This document shows, piece after piece, positions 1,207 to 30,639 of a DNA stretch of 30,639 nt. How positions within the stretch are numbered: the first letter of the stretch is position 1; the number at the start of each line of letters is the position of its first letter. A program made the position numbers and the translations under genes. Origin of the DNA: a virus; the IMG/VR virus record IMGVR_UViG_3300045988_023566, positions 1 through 30,639 of that record. The stretch is one strand, 5' to 3'. Below the pieces are notes generated by a model, which worked only from the letters and a program-made list of their open reading frames with translations, was not told the DNA's origin and searched no databases.

Positions 1207-1989
1207 TCAGTGGAGGGTGTTTTCGAAAGTCTCGTTCAGGCGGGTTTCGCCGAGACGCTGGTGGAGTAGCGATAGGCCTTTGCGGGTGATTCGTACGGTC
1301 GGGGGGAAAGCGAATTTCGTGCCGTCTGCTTTGGTGCCGTGTTTTGTGGACATGACCATTACGAGGTGGCCGGCCGTGCAGTGTTTCGCTGTGGCGTGCC
1401 ATGAGCCATTGGATTTGTAGATCCAGTCGTTGGCTGTCATCCATTCGCGCAGTTGGTTTTCGCTGATTGGCGTGCCTGCGTTGGAGAGGATTTTGGCGGC
1501 GTCGCGGACGAGGAGTCGGTCTTCCACGTTGGTGAAATCGTCTAGGGCTTTGGCTTTCGGTTCCAGTGCCTTGACTTTTTCCTGCTCTTCCTTCAGCTTG
1601 GTTGCGAGTTGGATAAGGAAGTCCGGGCTGGTAAGGGCCTTGTTGATGGTCTGTTGGGTCATGTATGCGCCATGCTTGCGGATGGTGGGGAGCACCTCGT
1701 GAGTTACCCAACGCTGGAACTCGTGGGCCTCCGGCTTACGGGAACGCATGATCAGCTTGTATAATCCCGGCTCGCTGATGAAAACCGGCGCTTTACCGCC
1801 GTTCTGGGCAATATCCGTACTACGGACATTGGTGATTTCGTCTTCGTCGAGGTATTCGCGAAGATGGTTAGTGCCGGTGCCGAGGATGTTGCACACATCC
1901 TGTCCTGAGAACCATGGTTCGCCAGTATTGTCTGTCAGGGTGCGCAGCGATGTGGCGTTGAAGTCGAATGTTTGGATTTCGGCGTTCAT
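1207..1989 (-). CDS. Phage antirepressor, Bro-N plus KilAC/ANT-type domain (paralog 1)
   Basis: 260-aa ORF. N-terminus FDFNATSLRTLTDNTGEPWFSGQDVCNILG (Bro-N). C-terminus LDDFTNVEDRLLVRDAAKILSNAGTPISENQLREWM...TVRITRKGLSLLHQRLGETRLNE is nearly collinear with the downstream paralog. Confidence 0.8.
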   Translation of the reverse strand: MNAEIQTFDFNATSLRTLTDNTGEPWFSGQDVCNILGTGTNHLREYLDEDEITNVRSTDIAQNGGKAPVFISEPGLYKLIMRSRKPEAHEFQRWVTHEVLPTIRKHGAYMTQQTINKALTSPDFLIQLATKLKEEQEKVKALEPKAKALDDFTNVEDRLLVRDAAKILSNAGTPISENQLREWMTANDWIYKSNGSWHATAKHCTAGHLVMVMSTKHGTKADGTKFAFPPTVRITRKGLSLLHQRLGETRLNETFENTLH

Positions 1990-2483: not shown

Positions 2484-2510
2484 GGCGTGTCGCGAGAGTG
2501 ATCGTAATAT
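2484..2510 (+). promoter_or_regulatory. Candidate rightward promoter P0: GGCGTGTC motif plus TAATAT -10
   Basis: GGCGTGTC at 2484-2491 and TAATAT at 2505-2510, about 55 nt upstream of the SD/ATG of gene 2568. The 5' UTR contains a small hairpin GTAGGAcatgaaATCCTAC. Confidence 0.45.
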
Positions 2511-2567
2511 TATGTGTATATCAAACAACGTAGGACATGAAATCCTACACCTAGAAAGGAAACAGAA

Positions 2568-2789
2568 ATGTCCGAGAACAACAACAACAACGACAACGAG
2601 AACGTCCAGCCGCAGGCCGCCCCACAGCCGATCATCATCAACAACGTGATGGGCACACAGCCGGACGACAGCGGCAAGAAGAAGGCCCCCGGGTTCCTCA
2701 AGGTACTCATCTATTCCGTCCTTACGGGTGGCATCTACTTCTTCTACTGGCTCGTCAAGATGCTGAGCGGCGGATACCGCACCAAGTAA
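2568..2789 (+). CDS. Small membrane protein with an Asn-rich N-terminus and one C-terminal TM segment (DUF4234-like GGIYxFYW motif)
   Basis: SD aaaggaaacagaaATG. 73 aa; the C-terminus FLKVLIYSVLTGGIYFFYWLVKML is hydrophobic. Codons end in C/A like the neighbouring genes. Confidence 0.7.
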   Translation: MSENNNNNDNENVQPQAAPQPIIINNVMGTQPDDSGKKKAPGFLKVLIYSVLTGGIYFFYWLVKMLSGGYRTK

Positions 2790-2806
2790 CTTCAGACAGA
2801 TAAGAT

Positions 2807-2850
2807 AATCCCCGTCCCTAGTCTTTCGACCAGAGGCGGGGATTATTATT
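2807..2850 (+). terminator. Hairpin plus T-rich tail after gene 2568..2789
   Basis: AATCCCCG (2807-2814) pairs with CGGGGATT (2837-2844) and is followed by ATTATTATT. The loop is long (22 nt), so this is only moderately convincing. Confidence 0.45.
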
Positions 2851-2929
2851 ATTCAAGGAAAAGCAGCCGGGGCGGGAAACCAATAAAACGCCCCGACGCT
2901 CATAATCCTACCACAAAAGGAGGTTCTAA

Positions 2930-3340
2930 ATGGAAATCATGCTGGACAACGGAGCGTACAAACCGTCACGAGGCCACGAGACCGACGCAGGGCTTGATCT
3001 GCGTACGCCAAAGGACGTGACGGTACCGGCGTACGGAAGCGCGATAGTCGATACTGGCGTGCACGTGGCATTGCCGCATGGATGCGCTGGACTGCTCGTC
3101 AGCAAGAGCGGACTCAACGTCAGGCACGACATCACGAGCACCGGACTCATCGACGAAGGTTATACCGGGAGCATCGTGGTCAAGCTCTACAATCACGGCG
3201 GCGGGGATTACCAGCTTGCGGCCGGAGACAAGATCACGCAGCTGGTCGTGTTCCCGGTGGTCCGCGAGTCATTGGAGCAGGTGTCTGCGTTCAATGCGAC
3301 GGAACGTGGCGACAACGGTTTCGGAAGCACCGGACGGTAA
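2930..3340 (+). CDS. dut: dUTP diphosphatase (trimeric dUTPase)
   Basis: SD aaaggaggttctaaATG. dUTPase motifs are present: AGLDL, SKSGL, GLIDEGYTG, and RGDNGFGSTG at the C-terminus. Confidence 0.92.
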   Translation: MEIMLDNGAYKPSRGHETDAGLDLRTPKDVTVPAYGSAIVDTGVHVALPHGCAGLLVSKSGLNVRHDITSTGLIDEGYTGSIVVKLYNHGGGDYQLAAGDKITQLVVFPVVRESLEQVSAFNATERGDNGFGSTGR

Positions 3341-3343
3341 GCC

Positions 3344-3679
3344 ATGTGGAACGGACGGAGCAAATATCATGCCAAGAAGACGACCGTGGACGGCATTACC
3401 TTCGATTCGAAGCGTGAGGCCGACAGATACACGGTCTTGAAGCGAATGGAGCAGGAAGGAGCCATAGAAGGCCTCAGGAGGCAGGTGCGCTACGAGCTCA
3501 TCCCGTCCTTCGACGTGGATGGCAAGCACTACAGGCCCGTCTATTATGTGGCTGACTTCGTCTACCGTGAGGATGGCCATGAGGTCGTCGAAGACGTCAA
3601 AGGCATGAGGACCGACGTGTACCGACTCAAGAGCAAGCTCTTCGCACGACGGTACGGCAAGTTCATCAAGGAGACGTGA
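3344..3679 (+). CDS. DUF1064-family protein (PD-(D/E)XK-like phage protein)
   Basis: GRSKYHAKKTTVDGITFDSKREADRYTVL...YYVADFVYREDGHEVVEDVKGMRTDVYRLKSKLF matches the characteristic DUF1064 pattern (KY.a.k....G..FdSk.Ea..y..L; aDF.y...g...veDvKG..t..y.lK). Confidence 0.8.
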   Translation: MWNGRSKYHAKKTTVDGITFDSKREADRYTVLKRMEQEGAIEGLRRQVRYELIPSFDVDGKHYRPVYYVADFVYREDGHEVVEDVKGMRTDVYRLKSKLFARRYGKFIKET

Positions 3680-3698
3680 CGGCCTAAGGAACGGGCAT

Positions 3699-3746
3699 GG
3701 CCCCGGTTGGTCTAGGGAGGAATCCCGGACCGGCCGGGGCCTTTTC
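3699..3746 (+). terminator. Rho-independent terminator after the dut-DUF1064 unit
   Basis: A long imperfect hairpin: GGCCCCGG..GGTC..GGGA-ggaa-TCCC..GACC..CCGGGGCC (3699-3741), followed by TTTTCG. Confidence 0.75.
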
Positions 3747-3793
3747 GTTGGCGTCGACAAAAAGGCAGGAGAGGCAGAAAAGCAAGCCAGCCT

Positions 3794-3876
3794 CAGTATT
3801 CAGGTATCAACCCTCAATACCTAGGTATCGACCCCCCAATACCTAGGTATCGACCCCCAGTACATAGGTATCGAGC
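3794..3876. repeat. Iteron family A: four tandem 21-22-bp repeats (cAATACCTAGGTATCGACCCC)
   Basis: Copies at 3794-3814, 3815-3836, 3837-3857 and 3858-3876. The two middle copies are identical apart from one extra C in the 3' C-run and contain the perfect 10-bp palindrome TACCTAGGTA. The outer copies are degenerate (cAGTATTCAGGTATCAACCCT and cAGTACATAGGTATCGAGC). Confidence 0.9.
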
Positions 3877-3878
3877 AA

Positions 3879-3933
3879 AGACCCTTCTACTAGACCCTTC
3901 TACTAGAAGATCCTTCTACTAGACCCTTCTAAA
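3879..3933. repeat. Iteron family B: four 13-bp direct repeats (AGACCCTTCTACT)
   Basis: 3879-3891 and 3892-3904 are identical. 3908-3920 is AGATCCTTCTACT and 3921-3933 is AGACCCTTCTAAA. Periods are 13, 16 and 13 bp. Confidence 0.9.
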
Positions 3934-3937
3934 TAAT

Positions 3938-3957
3938 GCGGCTCCGCGGGGAGCCGC
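3938..3957. other. Perfect 8-bp GC-rich hairpin GCGGCTCC-gcgg-GGAGCCGC
   Basis: Read directly; it sits between iteron family B and the first D element. Confidence 0.7.
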
Positions 3958-4033
3958 GTTGCACTCCCGAGTGGAGCTAATCCCAATCCCAGGGGATTCG
4001 GAGCCTAGACCGATCGGAGCTGGGTCTCGGTGG

Positions 4034-4116
4034 CTTCGGTGACCGAGGCATTGGGCCATGGGATCTGACCTGATGTCTTCCAGGCTTCTTCCATGGCTCT
4101 GAGCAGAGGAGGAGGA
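4034..4116 (+). repeat. D1: first copy of a roughly 80-nt imperfect direct repeat containing a CCATGG-centred 11-bp stem (candidate structured RNA or DNA element)
   Basis: cttcggtgaccgaggcattgggccatgggatc...ttccatggctctgagcagaggaggagga. The 5' arm GGGCCATGGGA (4053-4063) pairs with TTCCATGGCTC (4089-4099). It is about 90% identical to D2 outside the loop. Confidence 0.7.
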
Positions 4117-4170
4117 ATAGGGTGGAGTCATCGGGAGCTCTTTCAACCCCCCCTACTGAGTGATAAGCCT

Positions 4171-4253
4171 ACCCTCAAAATGAGGGTGCCAACTCTCAAA
4201 ATGAGGGTGGCCAACACTCAAAATGAGTGTTAGCTAAACCTCAAAATGAGGAC
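4171..4253. repeat. Iteron family C: four copies of the palindromic core CTCAAAATGAG spaced 21-23 bp apart
   Basis: Cores start at 4174, 4195, 4217 and 4240. Copy 1 extends to ACCCTCA-AAA-TGAGGGT and copy 3 to CACTCA-AAA-TGAGTG. Confidence 0.9.
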
Positions 4254-4375
4254 TCATATATATAGCTCTATAGGGATAGGTAGATACTCTAGTTAGATAG
4301 AGATAAGAGAGAGAAAGAAAGATAAATCTTTCTTTCCAAAGAGAGAGAAACCGAAACCAGTCTTCCAAATCAATC
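4254..4375. other. AT-rich block with a purine/pyrimidine mirror tract and a perfect 10-bp inverted repeat (candidate DNA-unwinding element)
   Basis: catatatatagctctatagggataggtagatactctagttagatagagataagagagagaaagaaagataaatctttctttcc... GAAAGAAAGA (4313-4322), loop taaa, TCTTTCTTTC (4327-4336). This looks like the most AT-rich stretch of the window and is flanked by D1/C iterons and D2. Confidence 0.6.
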
Positions 4376-4383
4376 CTTGGACA

Positions 4384-4464
4384 CTTCGGTGACTGAGGCA
4401 TTGAGCCATGGGATCCTCTCGATACTGTCCACGCTCCTTCCATGGCTCTAAGCATCGAGGAGGA
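4384..4464 (+). repeat. D2: second copy of the roughly 80-nt hairpin element
   Basis: cttcggtgactgaggcattgagccatgggatc...ttccatggctctaagcatcgaggagga. The stem is GAGCCATGGGA (4403-4413) with TTCCATGGCTC (4438-4448). It is followed by a second perfect stem, AGCATCGA (4451-4458) with TCGATGCT (4478-4485). Confidence 0.7.
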
Positions 4465-4639
4465 TACGGTCTTGGCTTCGATGCTGCCCTTCGGGCCTTG
4501 GTCCCGGTTCCCGGACTGAATGGGCAGGGAGGAGAGTTGGTCTGTGCTTGGCTTGGGTGGTTCTCTCGCCGCTTGGCGTTCTCGATGCTTTTCGTTGCTG
4601 TTTTGGGCTGGAATGTCGCTTTCGTGCGTAAAGGCCTTT

Positions 4640-4695
4640 TTGACGGGCTGTCGTGGGTGGACCTTGACGAGTTATCGTGTTTGACGGGAAAATCG
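4640..4695 (+). repeat. Three TTGACGRG-N3/4-TCG repeats within a local G+T-rich island
   Basis: TTGACGGGctgTCG (4640), TTGACGAGttaTCG (4664) and TTGACGGGaaaaTCG (4681). The surrounding 4500-4760 region is G/T-rich on the + strand, unlike its flanks. Confidence 0.6.
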
Positions 4696-4820
4696 GTTTG
4701 AGGGGCCTTTACGTGCGTTCTGGAGGCATGTGCGGTAAAAAGCATGCGGGAGGGATGCTGTAGATGAGTGAACGAGCCGTGCCGGACCGTCCGCCTTCCA
4801 CGCTTTTCAAGCTTGTGTGC

Positions 4821-4826
4821 TATACT
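4821..4826 (+). promoter_or_regulatory. Candidate -10 box TATACT for gene 4861..5106
   Basis: cttgtgtgcTATACTtatagc, about 35 nt upstream of the ATG. No clear -35 was seen. Confidence 0.4.
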
Positions 4827-4860
4827 TATAGCAACGCTAAAACCAAGAAAGGAACCAACA

Positions 4861-5106
4861 ATGAGCGTTTACGAAGCCATCGGCAATCTCCTCGTCGAAC
4901 GGTACGGAGTCCACTTCAGCGAGGAAGGCGAACAGAAATCCCGCAAGTTCTTTGCCGGCCTGTGCGCGAAGTTCAGCGAAGAGGAAGTACTCGAAGCATG
5001 GAAGACCGCATGCGGGAAGTACGACAATCCGACTACCGCGCTCTCGAAGCTCGGCGGCATTCTCTACAATCGCAGTCTCTTCAGCTCGTTCATTGAGAAA
5101 AATTAA
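4861..5106 (+). CDS. Hypothetical protein (81 aa)
   Basis: SD aagaaaggaaccaacaATG. MSVYEAIGNLLVERYGVHFSEEGEQKSRKFF... The track ORF 4768..5106 is in the same frame, but the internal start has the SD. Codon usage is C/A-ending like neighbouring genes. Confidence 0.65.
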   Translation: MSVYEAIGNLLVERYGVHFSEEGEQKSRKFFAGLCAKFSEEEVLEAWKTACGKYDNPTTALSKLGGILYNRSLFSSFIEKN

Positions 5107-5115
5107 AAAAACATC

Positions 5116-5144
5116 GGCGTGTCGTCCAAAAAACGTGATACACT
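5116..5144 (+). promoter_or_regulatory. Candidate promoter P1: GGCGTGTC motif plus extended -10 TGATACACT
   Basis: GGCGTGTC at 5116-5123 and TGaTACACT at 5136-5144, upstream of the replication genes. Confidence 0.5.
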
Positions 5145-5206
5145 AGAGACATACGCCATGTGAGATACCCCTACCGCTCATGTGGAGGATGTCAATCACA
5201 TGGCAT

Positions 5207-5277
5207 GAATCCCATTGATTGCTACCGGGGTAGGGCCGGTAGCAGTCGGTGGGATTCACTTTTTCCCGAAGGAAAAA
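5207..5277 (+). promoter_or_regulatory. Structured leader of the replication gene: nested 8+8-bp hairpin, T5 run, then an SD-sequestering hairpin
   Basis: GAATCCCA (5207-5214) pairs with TGGGATTC (5250-5257). Nested inside, GCTACCGG (5221-5228) pairs with CCGGTAGC (5236-5243). These are followed by acTTTTT. Then TTTTTCC (5260-5266), loop cgaa, GGAAAAA (5271-5277), which overlaps the SD gaaggaaaaa of ATG 5282. Confidence 0.55.
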
Positions 5278-5281
5278 CATC

Positions 5282-6037
5282 ATGTCCACAGTAAACGACA
5301 ACAACTTCGTCACGATCCAAGGCTGGATGCGTACCAAGCTCAACCTCAAAGGCAACGAACTACTCGCCTACGCCGTCATCTACGGCTTCTCACAGACGGA
5401 CGGTGCCAAATTCACCGGCTCCAGAAAATACCTCGCCGAGTGGTGCGGATGTTCCATGGCCACGATCGACAGAACACTCAACTCCCTCGTCGGCAAAGGT
5501 CTCATCTCAAGGACCTCATACATCACAAAGCACGGCTACCGCGCCGTTGAATACGCAGCCATGGGTCCGACCCACACCGACGAACCCTCCGACACGAAAC
5601 CCCGAACCGCGGACACGGACGACCCACAAACGCCAGCCGACGAACCCCAGCCGCTCCTCGACGAGCCGCAAGCCCCCGCACACCCGAAGGAACCCGACCC
5701 CACCGAAGAAGTCGTAGACCACCTCAACCAGCGTGCCGGCACCAACTACAAGGCCACCACCGCAAGCACACGCAAACTCATCAATGCACGGCTCAAGGAA
5801 GGCTTCACCGTCGACGAAATCAAGACCGTCATCGACAAGAAATGCGCCGACTGGCTCAACAACCGCGACATGGCCAAATACCTCCGCCCCGAAACCCTTT
5901 TCGGTCCGAAATTCGAAGGCTACCTCAACGCCAAGTCAATGCCACAAAACAACCCGAACAACACGACCTCCAACTATTCACCGTACTGCCCGCCAGTACC
6001 TGAAGGTACCGAACCAAGCTGCACGGTCGGATGGTGA
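5282..6037 (+). CDS. Replication initiator / replisome organizer (N-terminal wHTH, Pro/Asp/Glu-rich linker, conserved phage C-terminal DnaD-like domain)
   Basis: The N-terminus FVTIQGWMRTKLNLKGNELLAYAVIYGFSQ...SRKYLAEWCGCSMATIDRTLNSLVGKGLISR is the typical HTH of phage replication proteins. The C-terminus EVVDHLNQRAGTNYKATTASTRKLINARLKEGFTVDEIKTVIDKKCADWLNNRDMAKYLRPETLFGPKFEGYLN matches the 'conserved phage C-terminus' pattern. Start 5282 is preferred over the track start 5249 because of the SD. Confidence 0.8.
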   Translation: MSTVNDNNFVTIQGWMRTKLNLKGNELLAYAVIYGFSQTDGAKFTGSRKYLAEWCGCSMATIDRTLNSLVGKGLISRTSYITKHGYRAVEYAAMGPTHTDEPSDTKPRTADTDDPQTPADEPQPLLDEPQAPAHPKEPDPTEEVVDHLNQRAGTNYKATTASTRKLINARLKEGFTVDEIKTVIDKKCADWLNNRDMAKYLRPETLFGPKFEGYLNAKSMPQNNPNNTTSNYSPYCPPVPEGTEPSCTVGW

Positions 6038-6099
6038 GACACGACCCCAGCCGATAACCGCACACAAGCGTTACCGGCCCCTACCTATAACCCGGTAAC

Positions 6100-6140
6100 G
6101 ACACGCCGAAACCCCCCACAACACATACATGAGATACAAT
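6100..6140 (+). promoter_or_regulatory. Inverted GACACGCC motif plus TACAAT -10 upstream of the loader gene
   Basis: GACACGCC at 6100-6107 is the reverse complement of GGCGTGTC. TACAAT lies at 6135-6140 inside the palindrome ATACATGagatacaatcaCATGTAT. It is preceded by the hairpin CGTTACCGG (6069-6077) with CCGGTAACG (6092-6100). Confidence 0.4.
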
Positions 6141-6169
6141 CACATGTATACACAACGAAAGGAATACTA

Positions 6170-7015
6170 ATGGAAACCAACATCATCGAAACCATAGCCC
6201 GCAAGGCAAGCCAAGACAGCCACTACGAAGAAGGCGACTACCTCAACGAGGACGGCCTCCTCATGTGCGGCAAATGCCACACCCCAAAACAATGCCGCTT
6301 CATCGCCAAATGGGACAGCAAAGAGAAGAAACCGTACACGCCCTGCGACTGCGCACGCGAACGCCGGAAAACCGAAGAACAAGCCCGACGAGAACAAGAC
6401 ATGCGGATCGAAGTCCAACGTCTCAGAAAACTAGGCTTCCCCGACGCAGAAATGGCCAACTGGACATTCACCAACGACGACAGAACGAACAAGAACGCAT
6501 CCGACATCGCACACCGATACGTCAACAATTTCACGGAAATGAAAAAACACGGCAAAGGATTACTATTCCACGGCCCCGTCGGCAGCGGCAAAACGTTCCT
6601 CGCGGCAGCCATCGCAAACGAACTCATCAACCAAGGCCACCCATGCATGGTGACCAACTTCGCCCGAATCACGAACACGATTCAAGGAATGTTCGAAGGC
6701 AAGCAAAGATACCTCGACGACTTCAACCGACTGGATCTGCTGGTCATCGACGATTTAAACGCGGAACGCAACACGTCTTTCATGAACGAAATGATTTTCA
6801 ACATCATCGACTCGAGGTATCGGAGTGGGAAACCGCTCATCATCACGACCAACCTCTCGAAGGAAGAATTAATAGGCCAGACGGACACTTGCAGACAGCG
6901 CATCTACAGTCGACTGGTTGAAATGTGCTTCCCAGTAGAAGTCAATAACACGGATAGAAGAAAAAGAAAAGCCCGTAACGATTCAGAAGACTTGAGGAAA
7001 CTCCTCTATCTGTGA
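6170..7015 (+). CDS. DnaC/IstB-like AAA+ helicase loader
   Basis: Walker A GPVGSGKTFLAAAIANEL, Walker B LDLLVIDDL, then RYRSGKPLIITTN. An N-terminal Cys-rich segment (CGKCH...PCDC) is present. Confidence 0.88.
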   Translation: METNIIETIARKASQDSHYEEGDYLNEDGLLMCGKCHTPKQCRFIAKWDSKEKKPYTPCDCARERRKTEEQARREQDMRIEVQRLRKLGFPDAEMANWTFTNDDRTNKNASDIAHRYVNNFTEMKKHGKGLLFHGPVGSGKTFLAAAIANELINQGHPCMVTNFARITNTIQGMFEGKQRYLDDFNRLDLLVIDDLNAERNTSFMNEMIFNIIDSRYRSGKPLIITTNLSKEELIGQTDTCRQRIYSRLVEMCFPVEVNNTDRRKRKARNDSEDLRKLLYL

Positions 7016-9263: not shown

Positions 9264-9340
9264 TTGCGCTACTGATGCTCACCCTCACGGTACTCATCTC
9301 CTACAGGAGACGGTAAAACACAGGAAAATCTACGGAACAC

Positions 9341-9366
9341 GGCGTGTCACAGTATCGTGGCACGCC
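9341..9366 (+). terminator. 10-bp-stem hairpin GGCGTGTCAC-agtatc-GTGGCACGCC (terminator/operator half of the P3 cassette)
   Basis: The arms are complementary with one U-G pair and are followed by CCTTAT (a weak tail). The region is nearly identical to 12701-12726. Confidence 0.55.
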
Positions 9367-9371
9367 CCTTA

Positions 9372-9380
9372 TGATATATT
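9372..9380 (+). promoter_or_regulatory. Candidate promoter P3, extended -10 TGATATATT
   Basis: TGaTATATT lies 5 nt after the hairpin and about 50 nt upstream of ATG 9431. The same 9-mer occurs at 12732-12740. Confidence 0.55.
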
Positions 9381-9430
9381 AGACACATCAAGTAAAGAGC
9401 TTGACAAACACAAACACAAAGGAGCAACCA

Positions 9431-12069: not shown

Positions 12070-12354
12070 ATGGACACCCCAAAACTCCACGTGCTCACCA
12101 TCCTCTCATTCAAAGCAGTCCCAATCACCGCGGAAACGCTCGTAGACTTCGCTGAAATCGTCGGCTTCAAAGACACCCCGCAAAGCCTAAGAAGCCGTCT
12201 GGTCGAACTCGAACGAGCCGGATACGCGCATCGCGTCGACAGGAACGGTCTCAGCCGACACAACCGCCCTTGCTGGCGGTGGGAACTCACCCAAGACGGC
12301 CGGGAACGCATCCAGCAAGGCAACTTCACAGCAACATCAGGAGAAAGGAAATAA
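12070..12354 (+). CDS. Winged-helix DNA-binding protein (MarR/ArsR-like fold)
   Basis: KLHVLTILSFKAVPITAETLVDFAEIVG...SLRSRLVELERAGYAHRV...RPCWRWELTQDGRERI fits helix-turn-helix plus wing. Confidence 0.65.
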   Translation: MDTPKLHVLTILSFKAVPITAETLVDFAEIVGFKDTPQSLRSRLVELERAGYAHRVDRNGLSRHNRPCWRWELTQDGRERIQQGNFTATSGERK

Positions 12355-12361
12355 AAACACC

Positions 12362-12688
12362 ATGGCAACGAAACCATTCACGGTCACCATCGAAGGCAAA
12401 AAGCTCACGATACATCAGAACGCCTATACGGGGCTTTTCTATTCCATCAGACCGGACGGCAGCCACACCCCAGTCCCCTACAGGCTCATCAAGGAACAGA
12501 CGACCGGCATGCAGCGGCTCAAATACTGGCGAAACCGCTACGGATACACTCAGACGGAACTCGCCAAACTGATCCACGTATCCAGCCCGACCATCATCAT
12601 GATGTGGGAAAACGGGTTGAGGCATCCGCGCAAGGAATACCGGCAGCGGCTCAATGCCAAACTCGGCCACGGCATTTTCTTCGACTGA
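12362..12688 (+). CDS. XRE/Cro-type HTH protein with a roughly 50-aa N-terminal extension
   Basis: LKYWRNRYGYTQTELAKLIHVSSPTIIMMWENGLRHPRKEYRQRLNAKL is a classic HTH_3 pattern. Confidence 0.75.
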   Translation: MATKPFTVTIEGKKLTIHQNAYTGLFYSIRPDGSHTPVPYRLIKEQTTGMQRLKYWRNRYGYTQTELAKLIHVSSPTIIMMWENGLRHPRKEYRQRLNAKLGHGIFFD

Positions 12689-12700
12689 ACCCCATCCAGC

Positions 12701-12730
12701 GGCGTGTCGCAGTATCGCGGCACGCCTTTT
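12701..12730 (+). terminator. Hairpin GGCGTGTCGC-agtatc-GCGGCACGCC plus TTTT (terminator half of the P4 cassette)
   Basis: 10-bp stem with one U-G pair, followed by TTTTAT. Near-duplicate of 9341-9366. Confidence 0.7.
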
Positions 12731-12731
12731 A

Positions 12732-12740
12732 TGATATATT
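12732..12740 (+). promoter_or_regulatory. Candidate promoter P4, extended -10 TGATATATT
   Basis: Identical 9-mer and spacing as P3. Lies upstream of the single gene 12786..13055. Confidence 0.55.
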
Positions 12741-12785
12741 AAAAACGTCAGACGGAAAGCCTACACAACACAAAAGGAGCAAACA

Positions 12786-24076: not shown

Positions 24077-24355
24077 TCAGGCGGATGCCATTAGTCCAGC
24101 GTTGACCAGTGCGTTCACGATGTCGGCGATGGTGCCGGCGGTCGGGTCGACGTGGGCGGCCTTGGTGATCGTGGCGGCCGGACCAGCCGGACCAACCGGA
24201 CCAGCCGGACCAGCCGGACCAGCCGGACCCTGAGCGCCCTGACCGAAAGCCACCGGCTGCCCTTCCTTGTCCACAAAGTTAATGACCTTGACCGTGTTCA
24301 GGTTGTCTTCTGGCAGTGCCTTGCCGCCGATTCGAGCATACATTTCAGCGTTCAT
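24077..24355 (-). CDS. Small collagen-like (Gly-X-Y) protein; head decoration or fibre candidate
   Basis: 92 aa with the run GAQ GPA GPA GPA GPV GPA GPA. It lies immediately downstream of the capsid gene. Confidence 0.7.
   Translation of the reverse strand: MNAEMYARIGGKALPEDNLNTVKVINFVDKEGQPVAFGQGAQGPAGPAGPAGPVGPAGPAATITKAAHVDPTAGTIADIVNALVNAGLMASA
24177..24233. repeat. Tandem 9-nt repeat (CCAGCCGGA and variants) encoding the GPA triplets
   Basis: gccggaccagccggaccaaccggaccagccggaccagccggaccagccggaccc, read directly. Confidence 0.9.
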
Positions 24356-24357
24356 TA

Positions 24358-26172
24358 TCAGGCCTTCGGCTTGATGACCACTGCGGACTTCTCAGCGTCC
24401 AGACCGCCACCCGCGTAGATTTCCTGCAGGTATTCGTTGGTGTTGGTCTGCAATGCGAAGTTCGTGAAGGATTCGACGCTCGTGTCGCCGACGAGCGTAT
24501 AGTGAGAAGCGGACAGGACCACGCCAGCCACCTTCTTGTCATCATCCGCAGTCCACCATTCCGGGGTGATGATCTGGGAGACGCCGAGAGCACGGGCGAG
24601 CGTGTCGTCACCGCCGAGAGCGATGAAGCTGTTGCCGTTAGCGTCGGCGCTCATGAGCAGGTCGGCTACCGTGTCCGCATTGCAGACGAGAACCTTGTTG
24701 CCCTGTGCGCGGACCATGTGGGAAGCCTTGACGAAGCCCATGAGCGGGGTTTCCTCGCCGAGCGTGTAGGAGCGTGCGAACTTGTTTCCAGCCCATTCCG
24801 ACTTGGCGTCGGCTGCGTCGGTGGTGATGGCACGGAAGTGGGCCATGTCTTCGTAGCCGCCGAGCACAGCCTGACGTTCGATGGTCTGGACGATGTAGTT
24901 CGGCAGTTCGGAGAGGATGTAGCGGAGCAGTGCGCCCGGCTTCTGCGTACGACGGATGTCACCCTTGTTGAGGGTGATGTACTTGTACGTGTAGTCGGCG
25001 GTGAGTTCACGTTTCACGAAGGAGGGGGTCTGTTCCTGCTTCTTGGTGCCGTAGGAGGAGACCGGATAACCGTGGGCGCGGGTCGCTTCGGTCAGGCCGA
25101 GAATGTTGCCGCCGATGGTGAGGCGGTCCATGCCGGTCTTCTGGAAGAGATTCCACAAGCCGCTGCCGCGCGTGTTGAGCGCGTCGCTGATGGTGGTGAT
25201 GGCTTCGGTCGGGATGAACTTGTCCACGTCGGTCTTGCCTACGCCGAAGGATGCGGTGTCGGCCATGTTACGGGACACGGTGTCGGCCCATTCCTTGTGG
25301 AATGCTTCGACGCCCTTGTTGTCGTTGTCGATGAGGGTGCGTTCGAATGCGGCCATGGCATCCGGGGAGTCGAGCCACGTCTCACGAGTGTGGGAGAAGG
25401 AGGCGACGCCGGACTGCTTGGCGGCACGGTTGCTCTTGTTGATGATGACGAGCGGACGCTTGTTGGCGGACTGGGTCGGTTCTTCCGGGGCGGTGGTCAC
25501 TGTGGTGTCTCCTTCGTTGGTGTCGGTCTGGTCGTCGATCGCTTCCGTGATGTCGGATACCGCATCGTTCATGATGTCGGTAACGGACGAGGTGAGGTTT
25601 GCTGCCTCGTCGGGGTCGAGCTTGAACTGGGCGACGGTGCGTGCCAGCTTGGTCATGAGGCCATTATCCATGGTGTCTCCTTTTCGGTTGTTGATTGAGG
25701 TGAATGCGGCTCGGGGGTCGGCTCCACGGTAGACGACGCTGATTTCTACCAGTTCGCCATTGTGGATGATGCCGTCTTTGCCGGGCTGTCGGTTGAACTC
25801 GACGGTGATGCTGAAACTGTTGGTCAGGCATCCGTCGGCTGCGAGCTGGCGGATGCGTTCTCCGTTGTCGACTTCACTGAGTCTGGCTTCGGCCATGAGT
25901 CCGGCGTCGGTCATCCATAGGCGGGTGATGGTGCCGGCTTGGGCTTCGACTGATGGCATGTGGTCGATGAGGAGGGGGAGTGAGAGCCTGTCGGAATCAT
26001 CGAGGTCTGACACGAGTTTCAGGGTCCCGTCGGTGAGTGGGGCTTTGAGTGTGTCGAGGTCTACGGTGAGTCCGCCGCACATTACCTTGCCGGAGTTGGC
26101 GAGGAATGTGAGGGTTCGGCCTTCGGTTTCAGTGTTGCCGCCGGTGTGGGTGAAGCTCTTTCGAGTGGTCAT
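24358..26172 (-). CDS. Fused prohead protease - scaffold/linker - HK97-fold major capsid protein
   Basis: 604 aa. The N-terminal roughly 170 aa resemble an HK97-type prohead protease (...NSFSITVEF...GELVEISVVYRGADPRA). An acidic linker follows (DDQTDTNEGDTTVTTAPEEP). The C-terminal roughly 330 aa have the size and composition of a major capsid protein. Confidence 0.75.
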   Translation of the reverse strand: MTTRKSFTHTGGNTETEGRTLTFLANSGKVMCGGLTVDLDTLKAPLTDGTLKLVSDLDDSDRLSLPLLIDHMPSVEAQAGTITRLWMTDAGLMAEARLSEVDNGERIRQLAADGCLTNSFSITVEFNRQPGKDGIIHNGELVEISVVYRGADPRAAFTSINNRKGDTMDNGLMTKLARTVAQFKLDPDEAANLTSSVTDIMNDAVSDITEAIDDQTDTNEGDTTVTTAPEEPTQSANKRPLVIINKSNRAAKQSGVASFSHTRETWLDSPDAMAAFERTLIDNDNKGVEAFHKEWADTVSRNMADTASFGVGKTDVDKFIPTEAITTISDALNTRGSGLWNLFQKTGMDRLTIGGNILGLTEATRAHGYPVSSYGTKKQEQTPSFVKRELTADYTYKYITLNKGDIRRTQKPGALLRYILSELPNYIVQTIERQAVLGGYEDMAHFRAITTDAADAKSEWAGNKFARSYTLGEETPLMGFVKASHMVRAQGNKVLVCNADTVADLLMSADANGNSFIALGGDDTLARALGVSQIITPEWWTADDDKKVAGVVLSASHYTLVGDTSVESFTNFALQTNTNEYLQEIYAGGGLDAEKSAVVIKPKA

Positions 26173-30390: not shown

Positions 30391-30639
30391 TCACCATTCG
30401 TCATTGTAGGATTGTGCGGACGGGGCGGGCTGGTTGATGTTGCTCCATGGGTCCTGTCGTTGTGGCGTGGACTGTTGTGGCGTGGACTGCTGGGCTGGGG
30501 CTTTCTTCAGGACCATGGTAATGGTCGCGTAGTTGATGGTGAAGTCGGTGCGTGGCTGTCCGTTGCGGTCGGTGCCGGTCTGCCATTTCAGGTCGCCTTC
30601 GACGCGTACCGGGGTGCCTTTGTGGAGGTTCTGGAGGTA
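30391..30639 (-). CDS. ssb: SSB, C-terminal part (30499-30639 duplicates 1-141)
   Basis: The same frame continues ...KKAPAQQSTPQQSTPQRQDPWSNINQPAPSAQSYNDEW*. This is a Pro/Gln-rich linker with a tandem QSTPQ repeat and an acidic-aromatic tip (NDEW), as in SSB C-terminal tails. Stop at 30391-30393. Confidence 0.85.
   Translation of the reverse strand, partial: YLQNLHKGTPVRVEGDLKWQTGTDRNGQPRTDFTINYATITMVLKKAPAQQSTPQQSTPQRQDPWSNINQPAPSAQSYNDEW
30499..30639. repeat. Terminal direct repeat, copy 2 of 2
   Basis: Identical to nt 1-141. Confidence 0.95.

Follow-up and report, generated by a model that had tools for sequence, protein, structure and literature searches.

The DNA analysed here (the window, 30,639 nucleotides) is a complete siphovirus genome of about 30.5 kb, and from its sequence the non-coding region ahead of its replication genes is probably an origin region that houses two lambda-style modules in tandem. 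Module 2 (4167-4336) is likely to be the working origin, while module 1 (3790-4116) is probably a relic of recombination. Each module comprises four dyad-symmetric iterons of 21-23 bp, a short-repeat or AT-rich block of about 55 bp, a palindrome, and an element of about 85 bp designated D (Table 1). A first-pass annotation of this region had counted three independent arrays, and deduced from them three binding specificities in one hub, more than a simple origin needs. The apparent excess is better accounted for by two tandem origin modules, one of them without a cognate initiator, since the 13-mers previously taken as the third specificity form the short-repeat block of module 1.

Table 1. Features of the putative origin region and its surroundings (positions in the window).
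Feature	Position	Strand	Basis
Intrinsic-terminator-like hairpin and T run	3699..3748	+	inverted repeat, terminator scan
Module 1 iterons: four, 21-22 bp, 18-bp dyad-symmetric core of TCAATACCTAGGTATCGA type, class IV	3790..3875		repeat and motif search
Module 1 short-repeat block: four 13-mers AGACCCTTCTACT, 41% GC	3879..3933		motif search
Module 1 palindrome GCGGCTCC-GCGG-GGAGCCGC	3938..3957		inverted-repeat search
D1, conserved element of about 85 bp ending module 1; inverted repeat GGCCATGG...CCATGGCTC	4032..4116		repeat search
Module 2 iterons: four, 21-23 bp, 17-bp dyad core ACYCTCAAAATGAGRGT, class I	4167..4253		motif search
AT-rich block: degenerate TAGATACTCTAG-type short repeats and purine tract	4254..4312		GC profile
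Module 2 palindrome GAAAGAAAGAT-AA-ATCTTTCTTTC	4313..4336		inverted-repeat search
D2, second D copy, ending module 2 and continuous with E	4384..4466		repeat search, alignment
E, conserved non-coding element, G+T-rich on + strand	4467..4760		alignment, composition
Candidate replication-operon promoter; extended -10 TG-C-TATACT at 4818-4826	4797..4826	+	read from sequence
Conserved gene, 81 aa, first 3' of the hub	4861..5106	+	75-88% amino-acid identity in relatives
Replication initiator / replisome organiser, HTH_36 winged helix and Phg_2220_C, class I	5282..6037	+	family searches
DnaC/IstB-like AAA+ helicase loader	6170..7015	+	family searches

The region is bounded upstream by a hairpin that closes the preceding operon (dUTPase and a DUF1064 gene ending at 3679), within a stretch (3680-3749) conserved in nearly all relatives. 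Downstream, the first gene product gave no match in family and PDB searches, and the PHROG matches of the initiator include 'replication initiation O-like'. Between 3680 and 4860 there is no conserved ORF: the local ORFs, once translated, align to relatives only as fragments that change frame, at below the DNA identity, and alignments of relatives across the hub contain many 1-nt indels, so that a conserved ORF on either strand is ruled out. This bears out the earlier view that no convincing ORF is present, and a check of the relatives for conserved protein-coding signal found none across the region. All the features previously listed were recovered, at coordinates exact or off by a few bases, and genome-wide motif counts, set against expectation and compared with relatives, confirmed the repeat families as genuine and restricted to this region. 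A tRNA/tmRNA scan found none. The cumulative GC skew reaches its maximum at 4-5 kb, with a sign opposite to the bacterial origin convention, and since it mostly tracks gene orientation it provides no independent support for an origin.

The host can only be guessed to be Bifidobacterium-like, from the 49% identity of TerL to that of Bifidobacterium phages; in the nearest cultured relative by TerL, the Bifidobacterium phage BlindBasel1, the intergenic region differs in architecture. With blastn the hub matched none of 50,697 phage records, and the adjacent small protein, used as a probe for prophage copies, revealed none in 185,579 reference genomes. Scanning metagenomes with the D inverted-repeat motif yielded at least four true relatives, the other listed matches being almost all due to chance. 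A literature search returned no description of the phage family or of the tandem-origin arrangement.

In module 2, four exact copies of CTCAAAATGAG lie at 4174-4250 with a spacing of 21-23 bp (four against 0.54 expected), and the genome is otherwise devoid of them; nor did a motif search find any comparable repeat array within the initiator gene or in the rest of the genome. The array is predicted to be the binding site of the phage's own initiator. The adjoining AT-rich block, which had been noted before, has 32% GC compared with 54.5% for the genome, the lowest value within the sampled interval 2500-6500; equivalent repeats of 12-14 bp are carried by the relatives, and the block is a predicted DNA-unwinding element. 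The inverted repeat that follows is indeed perfect, with arms of 11 bp rather than the 10 bp originally given (4313-4323 and 4326-4336), and it is kept in all class I and class II modules (for classes, see below).

Module 1 is laid out in the same way. Its four repeats of 21-22 bp are real, although the palindrome that they were said to share is exact (ATACCTAGGTAT) in only two of them; the cores of the other two are GTATTCAGGTAT and GTACATAGGTAT, and all four copies are mutually different. With up to two mismatches allowed, the core motif has three matches against 0.38 expected. The 13-mers AGACCCTTCTACT were confirmed with 0, 0, 1 and 2 mismatches (four matches against 0.34 expected); they occupy a position equivalent to that of the AT-rich block in module 2, and the same 13-16-mers follow the class IV iterons of three relatives (L018, L057 and L065). 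The GC hairpin, likewise as described, has an 8-bp stem and a 4-nt loop and is kept at the equivalent position in class III and class IV modules. Both arrays, then, have four copies, a spacing of 21-23 bp and palindromic cores of 17-18 bp; AT-richness is clear in module 2 and weaker in module 1, which has only the 41%-GC 13-mer block. The two D elements, also found earlier, have an overall identity of 78%, rising to 94% and 89% in individual blocks.

The region was compared with those of about 27 related phage contigs of some 30 kb each. These are mosaic: mostly they have one module, a single copy of D, and E, but some have two modules as in the window. Iterons, a short-repeat or AT-rich block and a palindrome make up each module, after which comes D. 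In all resolvable contigs the sequence of the iteron core changes together with that of the initiator's DNA-binding N-terminus, giving five or six classes (class I in eight contigs, II in seven, III in five, IV in about five and V in one), although with only 0.6-1.5 kb between iterons and initiator gene the association could be partly linkage and not function. A class I initiator and CTCAAAATGAG are found together in 8/8 class I contigs; the class-specific residues map to the winged-helix region; and in L057, which has a divergent class IV initiator, the iterons differ too. Homologues in the relatives of the XRE (12362-12688) and wHTH (12070-12354) proteins show continuous variation that does not sort by iteron class. 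Iterons spaced at about two helical turns and an AT-rich block, ahead of an initiator and a DnaC-like loader had been recognised at the outset as origin-like, and this co-variation strengthens that reading.

Cognate arrays consist of identical copies, while non-cognate arrays are heterogeneous (in the window, in L004 and L005, and in a class-III-like array in L017), and the cognate array is always the one adjacent to D/E. The class IV core forms homogeneous arrays in L018, L047, L065 and L073, phages whose initiator has the motif MKYT[IL]EGFSQ. A class IV initiator was sought in the window and is absent. By its sequence, therefore, the TACCTAGGTA array with its 13-mers and D1 (3790-4116) belongs to class IV and is not cognate to the window's initiator.

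It is proposed that dimers of the initiator would bind the four CTCAAAATGAG iterons through the winged-helix N-terminus, whereupon the neighbouring 32%-GC block would melt and the DnaC-like loader would recruit the host helicase. Module 1 would have been left over when an origin-plus-initiator cassette was swapped by recombination at the conserved D/E, and would be slowly decaying; against its being a relic, two of the four non-cognate iterons in the window are still intact. On this proposal the family would offer a natural example of replication specificity evolving in uncultured gut phages: at least five initiator classes, each with its own palindromic iteron, would be exchanged as cassettes at conserved flanking sequence, the previous origin sometimes staying behind. 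Exact protein-DNA pairs are predicted, and iterons could serve to mark replication-compatibility groups among metagenomic phages. Current models of origin function stand, and none is overturned.

The element formed by D2 and E (4384-4760) is a selected non-coding sequence of about 380 bp. D+E is about 83% identical to the relatives; the flanking genes reach 68% at their four-fold sites and 88% over codon positions 1 and 2. The element is non-coding and under purifying selection. It is nevertheless dispensable, L001 lacking D and E entirely. The G+T-rich stretch of the first-pass annotation (67% G+T over E) and its three TTGACGRG repeats (at 4640, 4664 and 4681) were both confirmed; overlooked there was a fifth repeat family, the 9-bp box TCGATGCTT, at 4477-4486 and 4581-4590 in E and at 4417-4426 and, on the minus strand, 4450-4459 in D2. 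Across 25 regions there are 119 such boxes, against 5.9 in shuffles, at fixed positions and with tandem pairs among them. Because of these repeated boxes, D2+E is probably cis-regulatory DNA; it lies, family-wide, between the origin and the putative replication-operon promoter, and most likely offers its TCGATGCTT boxes as binding sites for a shared factor. Two degenerate boxes of this type (TTCCACGCTT and TTCAAGCTTG) lie directly 5' of the extended -10, and in relatives two exact tandem boxes are found 53 and 63 nt ahead of the ATG of the small gene. A promoter consensus scan did not call the site; from these sequence features we infer that it would drive the replication operon.

Purifying selection without coding capacity is also what would be expected if D and E, possibly with D1, were transcribed, as an ncRNA or as a long structured leader of the replication operon, an explanation that we regard as rather unlikely. 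It is favoured by the G+T-richness of the plus strand, by alifold energies of -184 kcal/mol for that strand and -126 kcal/mol for the other, and by a GCCC-UUCG-GGGC hairpin with two compensatory changes and a conserved UNCG-type loop; a structured RNA gene also lies directly 3' of E in about half of the relatives. However, Rfam 15 gave no match in the window at E<=1, and for the hub, D and E included, only chance-level hits at E<=10; D1 and D2, each folded as a single sequence, had z-scores that did not improve on those of shuffles; and covariation in D+E stays at control level, with 6 doubly changed pairs (shuffles 3.8+-1.4, slid controls 4-11), whereas the same method applied in the same phages to the neighbouring insert found 15 pairs and 63 cells, with 0/500 shuffles as high. 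The aligned sequences are only modestly diverse (mean identity 80%), and weak structure in D+E could therefore still be present. Where conservation is highest the sequence does not vary at all, and the direct-repeat boxes recur at helical periodicity, which suggests recognition as double-stranded DNA; consensus scans found no convincing promoter or terminator bracketing D/E. The earlier suggestion of an ncRNA locus thus finds no backing from Rfam or covariation, though an unstructured transcript would be compatible with these results. Separately, the insert next to E in relatives specifies a covarying RNA of about 400 nt that is absent from Rfam.

Module 1, for its part, might be maintained as a functional array: as a decoy titrating the initiator of co-infecting class IV relatives, as a second origin from which that initiator could replicate this genome, or as a binding bank for another protein of this phage. 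The intact state of half its iterons and the good preservation of the 13-mers speak for this, as does the survival of class-IV-like palindromes in phages of classes I, III and V, some of them perfectly symmetric. In L001 and L006, neither of which is class IV, there are one or two palindromes TCGATATCTAGATATCGA with 9/9 symmetry, a hint of continued selection as opposed to pure decay. There is also precedent in lambda, where origin iterons, once cloned, can hamper replication of the phage that they match (the 'inhibition phenotype') and plasmid-borne inhibition requires cloned ori-lambda iterons (PMC3349717). But non-cognate arrays are heterogeneous and plainly degenerate in L004, L005 and L017; several class I phages (L002, L003) have no class-IV-like array; the initiator is the only phage protein that co-varies with the arrays; and the window has no class IV initiator. 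Maintenance of module 1 is accordingly unlikely. A more specific version, in which 3790-4116 is a maintained inter-phage device directed at a co-infecting class IV initiator and D/E links the firing of the origin to replication-operon expression, is distinctly unlikely; if true, module 1 would be a built-in 'foreign origin' for cheating or interference, and D/E a family-wide shared cis-acting control site or transcript.

Very unlikely, in our estimate, is that the arrays are autoregulatory operators of the initiator's own operon, with replication starting from another site, such as one within the initiator gene (the situation in lambda and SPP1). Initiators of iteron plasmids commonly autoregulate through their own binding repeats, the arrays here are 5' of the operon encoding the initiator, and co-variation is evidence of a binding partnership and not of origin function. 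Yet about 600 bp, E among them, separate the cognate array from the putative promoter; the array is flanked by the lowest-GC block of the sampled interval and by a palindrome, the classic layout of an origin; and neither the initiator gene nor the remainder of the genome has an array to compare with it. An operator bank, as once entertained, fits poorly, the XRE and wHTH proteins failing to track the arrays and no promoter consensus overlapping them. A partition centromere was likewise contemplated, but no partition family was found in Pfam, PHROGs or NCBIfam among some 40 of the longer ORFs, several of which had no match at all. A plasmid-type iteron incompatibility locus (P1 incA-like) was rejected, the cores of the two arrays being unrelated and of different initiator classes.

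The tandem-origin reading has a close parallel in lambda, in which each iteron is dyad-symmetric, the N-terminal domain of O determines which iterons are recognised, and the host helicase is brought in by a loader distinct from O. The present phage likewise has four dyad-symmetric iterons beside an AT-rich tract; ori-lambda has four iterons of 18 bp (about 18-19 bp), joined to a tract of 38 bp (about 40 bp) (PMC3349717, PMC7466680). The lambda origin, however, lies inside the initiator gene, whereas here the arrays are in non-coding DNA 0.6-1.5 kb 5' of a gene whose product is an HTH_36 and Phg_2220_C protein and not an O homologue; the region would therefore be ori-lambda-like in its working, but is not a member of that group. 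It differs also in having two tandem modules of different specificities and a conserved D/E element with no lambda counterpart.

In SPP1, oriL sits within the organiser gene and the phage has its own helicase. The likeness to this Bacillus phage lies in a phage-encoded replisome organiser with a dedicated helicase loader, and in repeats by an AT-rich region; the repeats are unrelated in both sequence and organisation, homology being compared at the level of family matches only. SPP1 oriL has G38P organiser boxes beside an AT-rich melting region, with G39P as loader (PMC5737612, PMC3561973).

Pairing of origin with Rep specificity is known from SaPI/PICI elements, in which discrete classes are swapped as units. 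In the PLE-ICP1 system, iteron arrays flank an AT-rich region and match in sequence the DNA-binding domain of their own initiator, and here too the specificity classes are discrete and change hands as units (PMC7145576, PMC8263062). All of these are satellites with a helicase-type Rep, in contrast to the complete phage and replisome-organiser type initiator described here, where, moreover, the old module would be retained beside the new. More than one iteron origin per replicon, some without a working initiator, is familiar from the FIA/FIB/FIC origins of IncF plasmids, and the lactococcal Per phenotype is another case of a cloned phage origin interfering with its cognate phage. The window resembles IncF plasmids in carrying multiple putative iteron origins on one replicon, and differs from both IncF and Per in that the extra module directly adjoins the probable active one and the D element is common to the two.

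The intergenic region occupied by the gene-free hub was compared across IMG/VR contigs encoding relatives of the flanking proteins, mostly about 30 kb long and mostly from one metagenome, which furnished approximately 27 distinct versions of it; at least four further relatives were recovered from metagenome records. The first-pass annotation had described the hub as devoid of genes, and the relatives show no conserved coding signal there, since alignments of its conserved part contain frequent 1-nt indels and every local ORF translation matches relatives only in frame-changing pieces, with identity below the DNA level. The repeat families previously listed are all present and statistically unexpected, with two corrections: the first array does have four iterons, but the exact palindrome occurs in only two of the four, and the inverted repeat is indeed perfect, but with arms of 11 bp rather than 10 bp.

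Coordinates of features in the hub and elsewhere in the window
Feature	Position	Strand	Remarks
Terminal repeat	1-141, 30499-30639		identical
Antirepressor genes	366-1190, 1207-1989	-	Bro-N/KilAC
End of DUF1064 gene	3679	+	
Terminator-like hairpin	3699-3748		
Module 1	3790-4116		iterons, 13-mers, GC palindrome, D1
D1	4032-4116		
Module 2	4167-4336		iterons, AT-rich block, palindrome
Predicted cognate array	4167-4253		
AT-rich block	4254-4312		32% GC; genome mean 54.5%
D2	4384-4466		
E	4467-4760		
TCGATGCTT boxes	4417-4426, 4450-4459(-), 4477-4486, 4581-4590, 4797-4816		same positions in relatives; 4797-4816 a degenerate pair
TG-C-TATACT	4818-4826		follows the degenerate pair
Small gene	4861-5106		conserved 81-aa ORF, next gene after hub
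Non-coding stretch	5107-5281		several hairpins
Terminator-like hairpin	5209-5255		20-bp stem; T run ends ~20 nt before initiator ATG
Initiator gene	5282-6037	+	HTH_36 + Phg_2220_C
Loader gene	6170-7015	+	DnaC/IstB-like
75-nt direct repeat	9340-9414, 12700-12774		76% identical
wHTH gene	12070-12354		
XRE regulator gene	12362-12688	+	
ORF of 92 aa	24077-24355	-	
9-bp tandem repeat	24168-24238		GCCGGACCA, ~7 copies
Capsid/protease gene	24358-26172	-	

The hub as a whole is not common to the relatives, most of which possess one repeat module, then a single copy of element D, and then E. Each module has three parts: an array of three to five iterons, repeating every 21-23 bp, is followed by a set of short repeats (three to five, each of 12-16 bp) or by an AT-rich block, and then by a palindrome (GAAAGAAAGAT/ATCTTTCTTTC or GCGGCTCC/GGAGCCGC), after which D is found. 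Modules are paired in tandem in the window and in the related contigs L004, L005 and L017, and more partially in L053 and L062; it is because of this tandem arrangement that D is present twice in the window. Compared with L065, a class IV phage, the window carries class I iterons, AT block, palindrome and D in addition; compared with L006, a phage of class I, its additional part consists of iterons, 13-mers, GC palindrome, spacer and D1.

In all relatives, the first long ORF to follow the small gene encodes the initiator. Discrete initiator classes can be told apart by the N-terminal winged-helix region, and the iteron core tracks the class; in L057 (class IV) the putative recognition helix deviates, and so do the palindromic iterons.

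Initiator classes and the iteron cores that accompany them
Class	Initiator signature	Iteron core
I	...SQTDGAKFTGSRKYLAEWCGCSMATIDRTLNSL...	ACYCTCAAAATGAGRGT
II	...KFSGTRRYIAEW...TVDNT...	CTGYAAAAnTTRCAG
III	...F[KT]GSRKYIADWCGCSLDTVDR...	GCCGCAAAATC
IV	MKYT[IL]EGFSQ...	TCRATAYCTAGGTATCGA
V (L053 only)		AAATGAATTTGGGTG

The window initiator belongs to class I, and its predicted cognate array is therefore that of module 2, which adjoins the AT-rich block; the cognate position is always proximal to D/E. By tblastn, neither a class IV nor a class V initiator was detected anywhere in the window. The hub is real, and an origin is the best supported interpretation of it. The apparent surplus of arrays, earlier taken to imply three binding specificities, finds a simple comparative explanation in a pair of origin modules, of which one is an orphan.

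The four iterons of module 1 are all mutually different, the counterpart arrays in L004 and L005 are more degraded still, and in L017 the class-III-like array lying upstream is also degenerate, whereas in cognate class IV arrays the same copy is repeated three times. This heterogeneity of the non-cognate copies is consistent with module 1 being a relic of cassette exchange. It may nevertheless keep a function, as phages of other classes (L001, L006, L053 and L062) still have one or two palindromes of class IV type, some of them perfectly symmetric. A control locus of the P1 incA type was rejected for the extra array, the sequence of which belongs to another specificity class. Of the other roles first suggested for the hub, an operator bank is disfavoured by the lack of any repressor match to the arrays (XRE and wHTH homologues, proposed as binders, occur across classes with an identity that varies continuously and ignores iteron class), a non-coding RNA locus by the lack of a matching Rfam family, and a partition centromere by the failure to find a partition protein in Pfam, PHROGs and NCBIfam scans of about 40 of the window's longer ORFs.

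In function, the hub is predicted to be an origin of the iteron type, as are ori-lambda, SPP1 oriL and the SaPI origins. In ori-lambda four 18-bp iterons are joined to a 38-bp AT-rich tract (PMC3349717, PMC7466680), a layout that the iteron and AT-rich parts of the tripartite module match. The window origin differs in lying outside the initiator gene, and its initiator comes from a different protein family, so that homology with ori-lambda was rejected.

D2 and E together are found in nearly all relatives, with about 83% identity to the window, against values for the flanking genes of 68% at four-fold degenerate positions and 88% at the first two codon positions; D2+E is therefore under purifying selection. 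It is dispensable all the same: in contig 3300045988_070004 (L001, 29.6 kb) the module-2 palindrome region runs straight into promoter-proximal sequence without D/E, and L002 and L013 have partial deletions there. Tests of D/E for a structured RNA gave no signal above controls. RNAalifold gave a weak covariation term, and its structure showed 6 two-sided pair changes against 3.8 ± 1.4 in shuffled alignments and 4-11 in slid controls, compensation being limited to one small GCCC-UUCG-GGGC hairpin; sequence diversity is modest, but the negative result is meaningful because the same procedure was clearly positive on a neighbouring insert. A fifth repeat family, absent from the first-pass annotation, is the box TCGATGCTT, which occurs 119 times in 25 regions where shuffles give 5.9. 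The boxes occupy fixed positions in D, E and the replication-operon promoter, some in tandem one helical turn apart: one pair, 10-11 bp apart, lies in mid-E, and a second, 53 and 63 nt ahead of the start codon of the small gene, lies directly upstream of an extended -10. Given these fixed positions and the negative RNA tests, we favour a DNA-level regulatory element, which would link the origin with the replication-operon promoter via a factor common to all family members.

The insert just mentioned, absent from the window, is a non-coding stretch of about 450 nt between E and the small gene in some 16 of the approximately 27 relatives (for example L006 4690-5150, alignment A2), and begins just after a TGCTATAAT-like -10 box. 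On the + strand its base pairs covary strongly: 15 pairs are changed on both sides, with 63 compensated cells, a level reached in none of 500 shuffles, and slid controls give 1-3 pairs. It has no match in Rfam 15, which makes it a candidate for a new structured RNA in this family of phages. A second non-coding stretch separates the small gene from the initiator gene, and may be an attenuator or leader; relatives have the sequence of its terminator-like hairpin ahead of their initiator too, and naive ORF calling there runs straight through it.

Because its 141-bp ends are identical, the window represents an entire phage genome, circular or terminally redundant and 30,498 bp long. Siphovirus structural genes (TerL, portal, protease/capsid fusion, tape measure, Dit-like and tail proteins) lie on the - strand, as do two antirepressor genes and an Xis-like HTH gene; the + strand early/replication arm encodes dUTPase, DUF1064 protein, initiator, loader, kinase, Erf, exonuclease and XRE regulator. 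No integrase was detected among the ORFs scanned. Judged by TerL, its closest cultured relatives are BlindBasel1 and BlindUri1, two phages of Bifidobacterium asteroides, and at 49% identity a bifidobacterial host can be proposed only tentatively. The antirepressor genes are adjacent paralogues, their DNA about 72-77% identical over several blocks. The 9-bp tandem repeat overlaps the 92-aa ORF just downstream of the capsid/protease gene, and probably encodes a Pro/Gly-rich linker. The two copies of the 75-nt direct repeat, each containing a GC hairpin followed by TTATGATATATTA, are probably repeated terminator/promoter junctions between early operons. Cumulative GC skew has its maximum at the hub, near 5 kb, and its minimum half a genome away, near 20 kb; the tail genes (14.3-20.5 kb) have a skew opposite to that of the remaining - strand genes, so that gene orientation alone does not account for the pattern.
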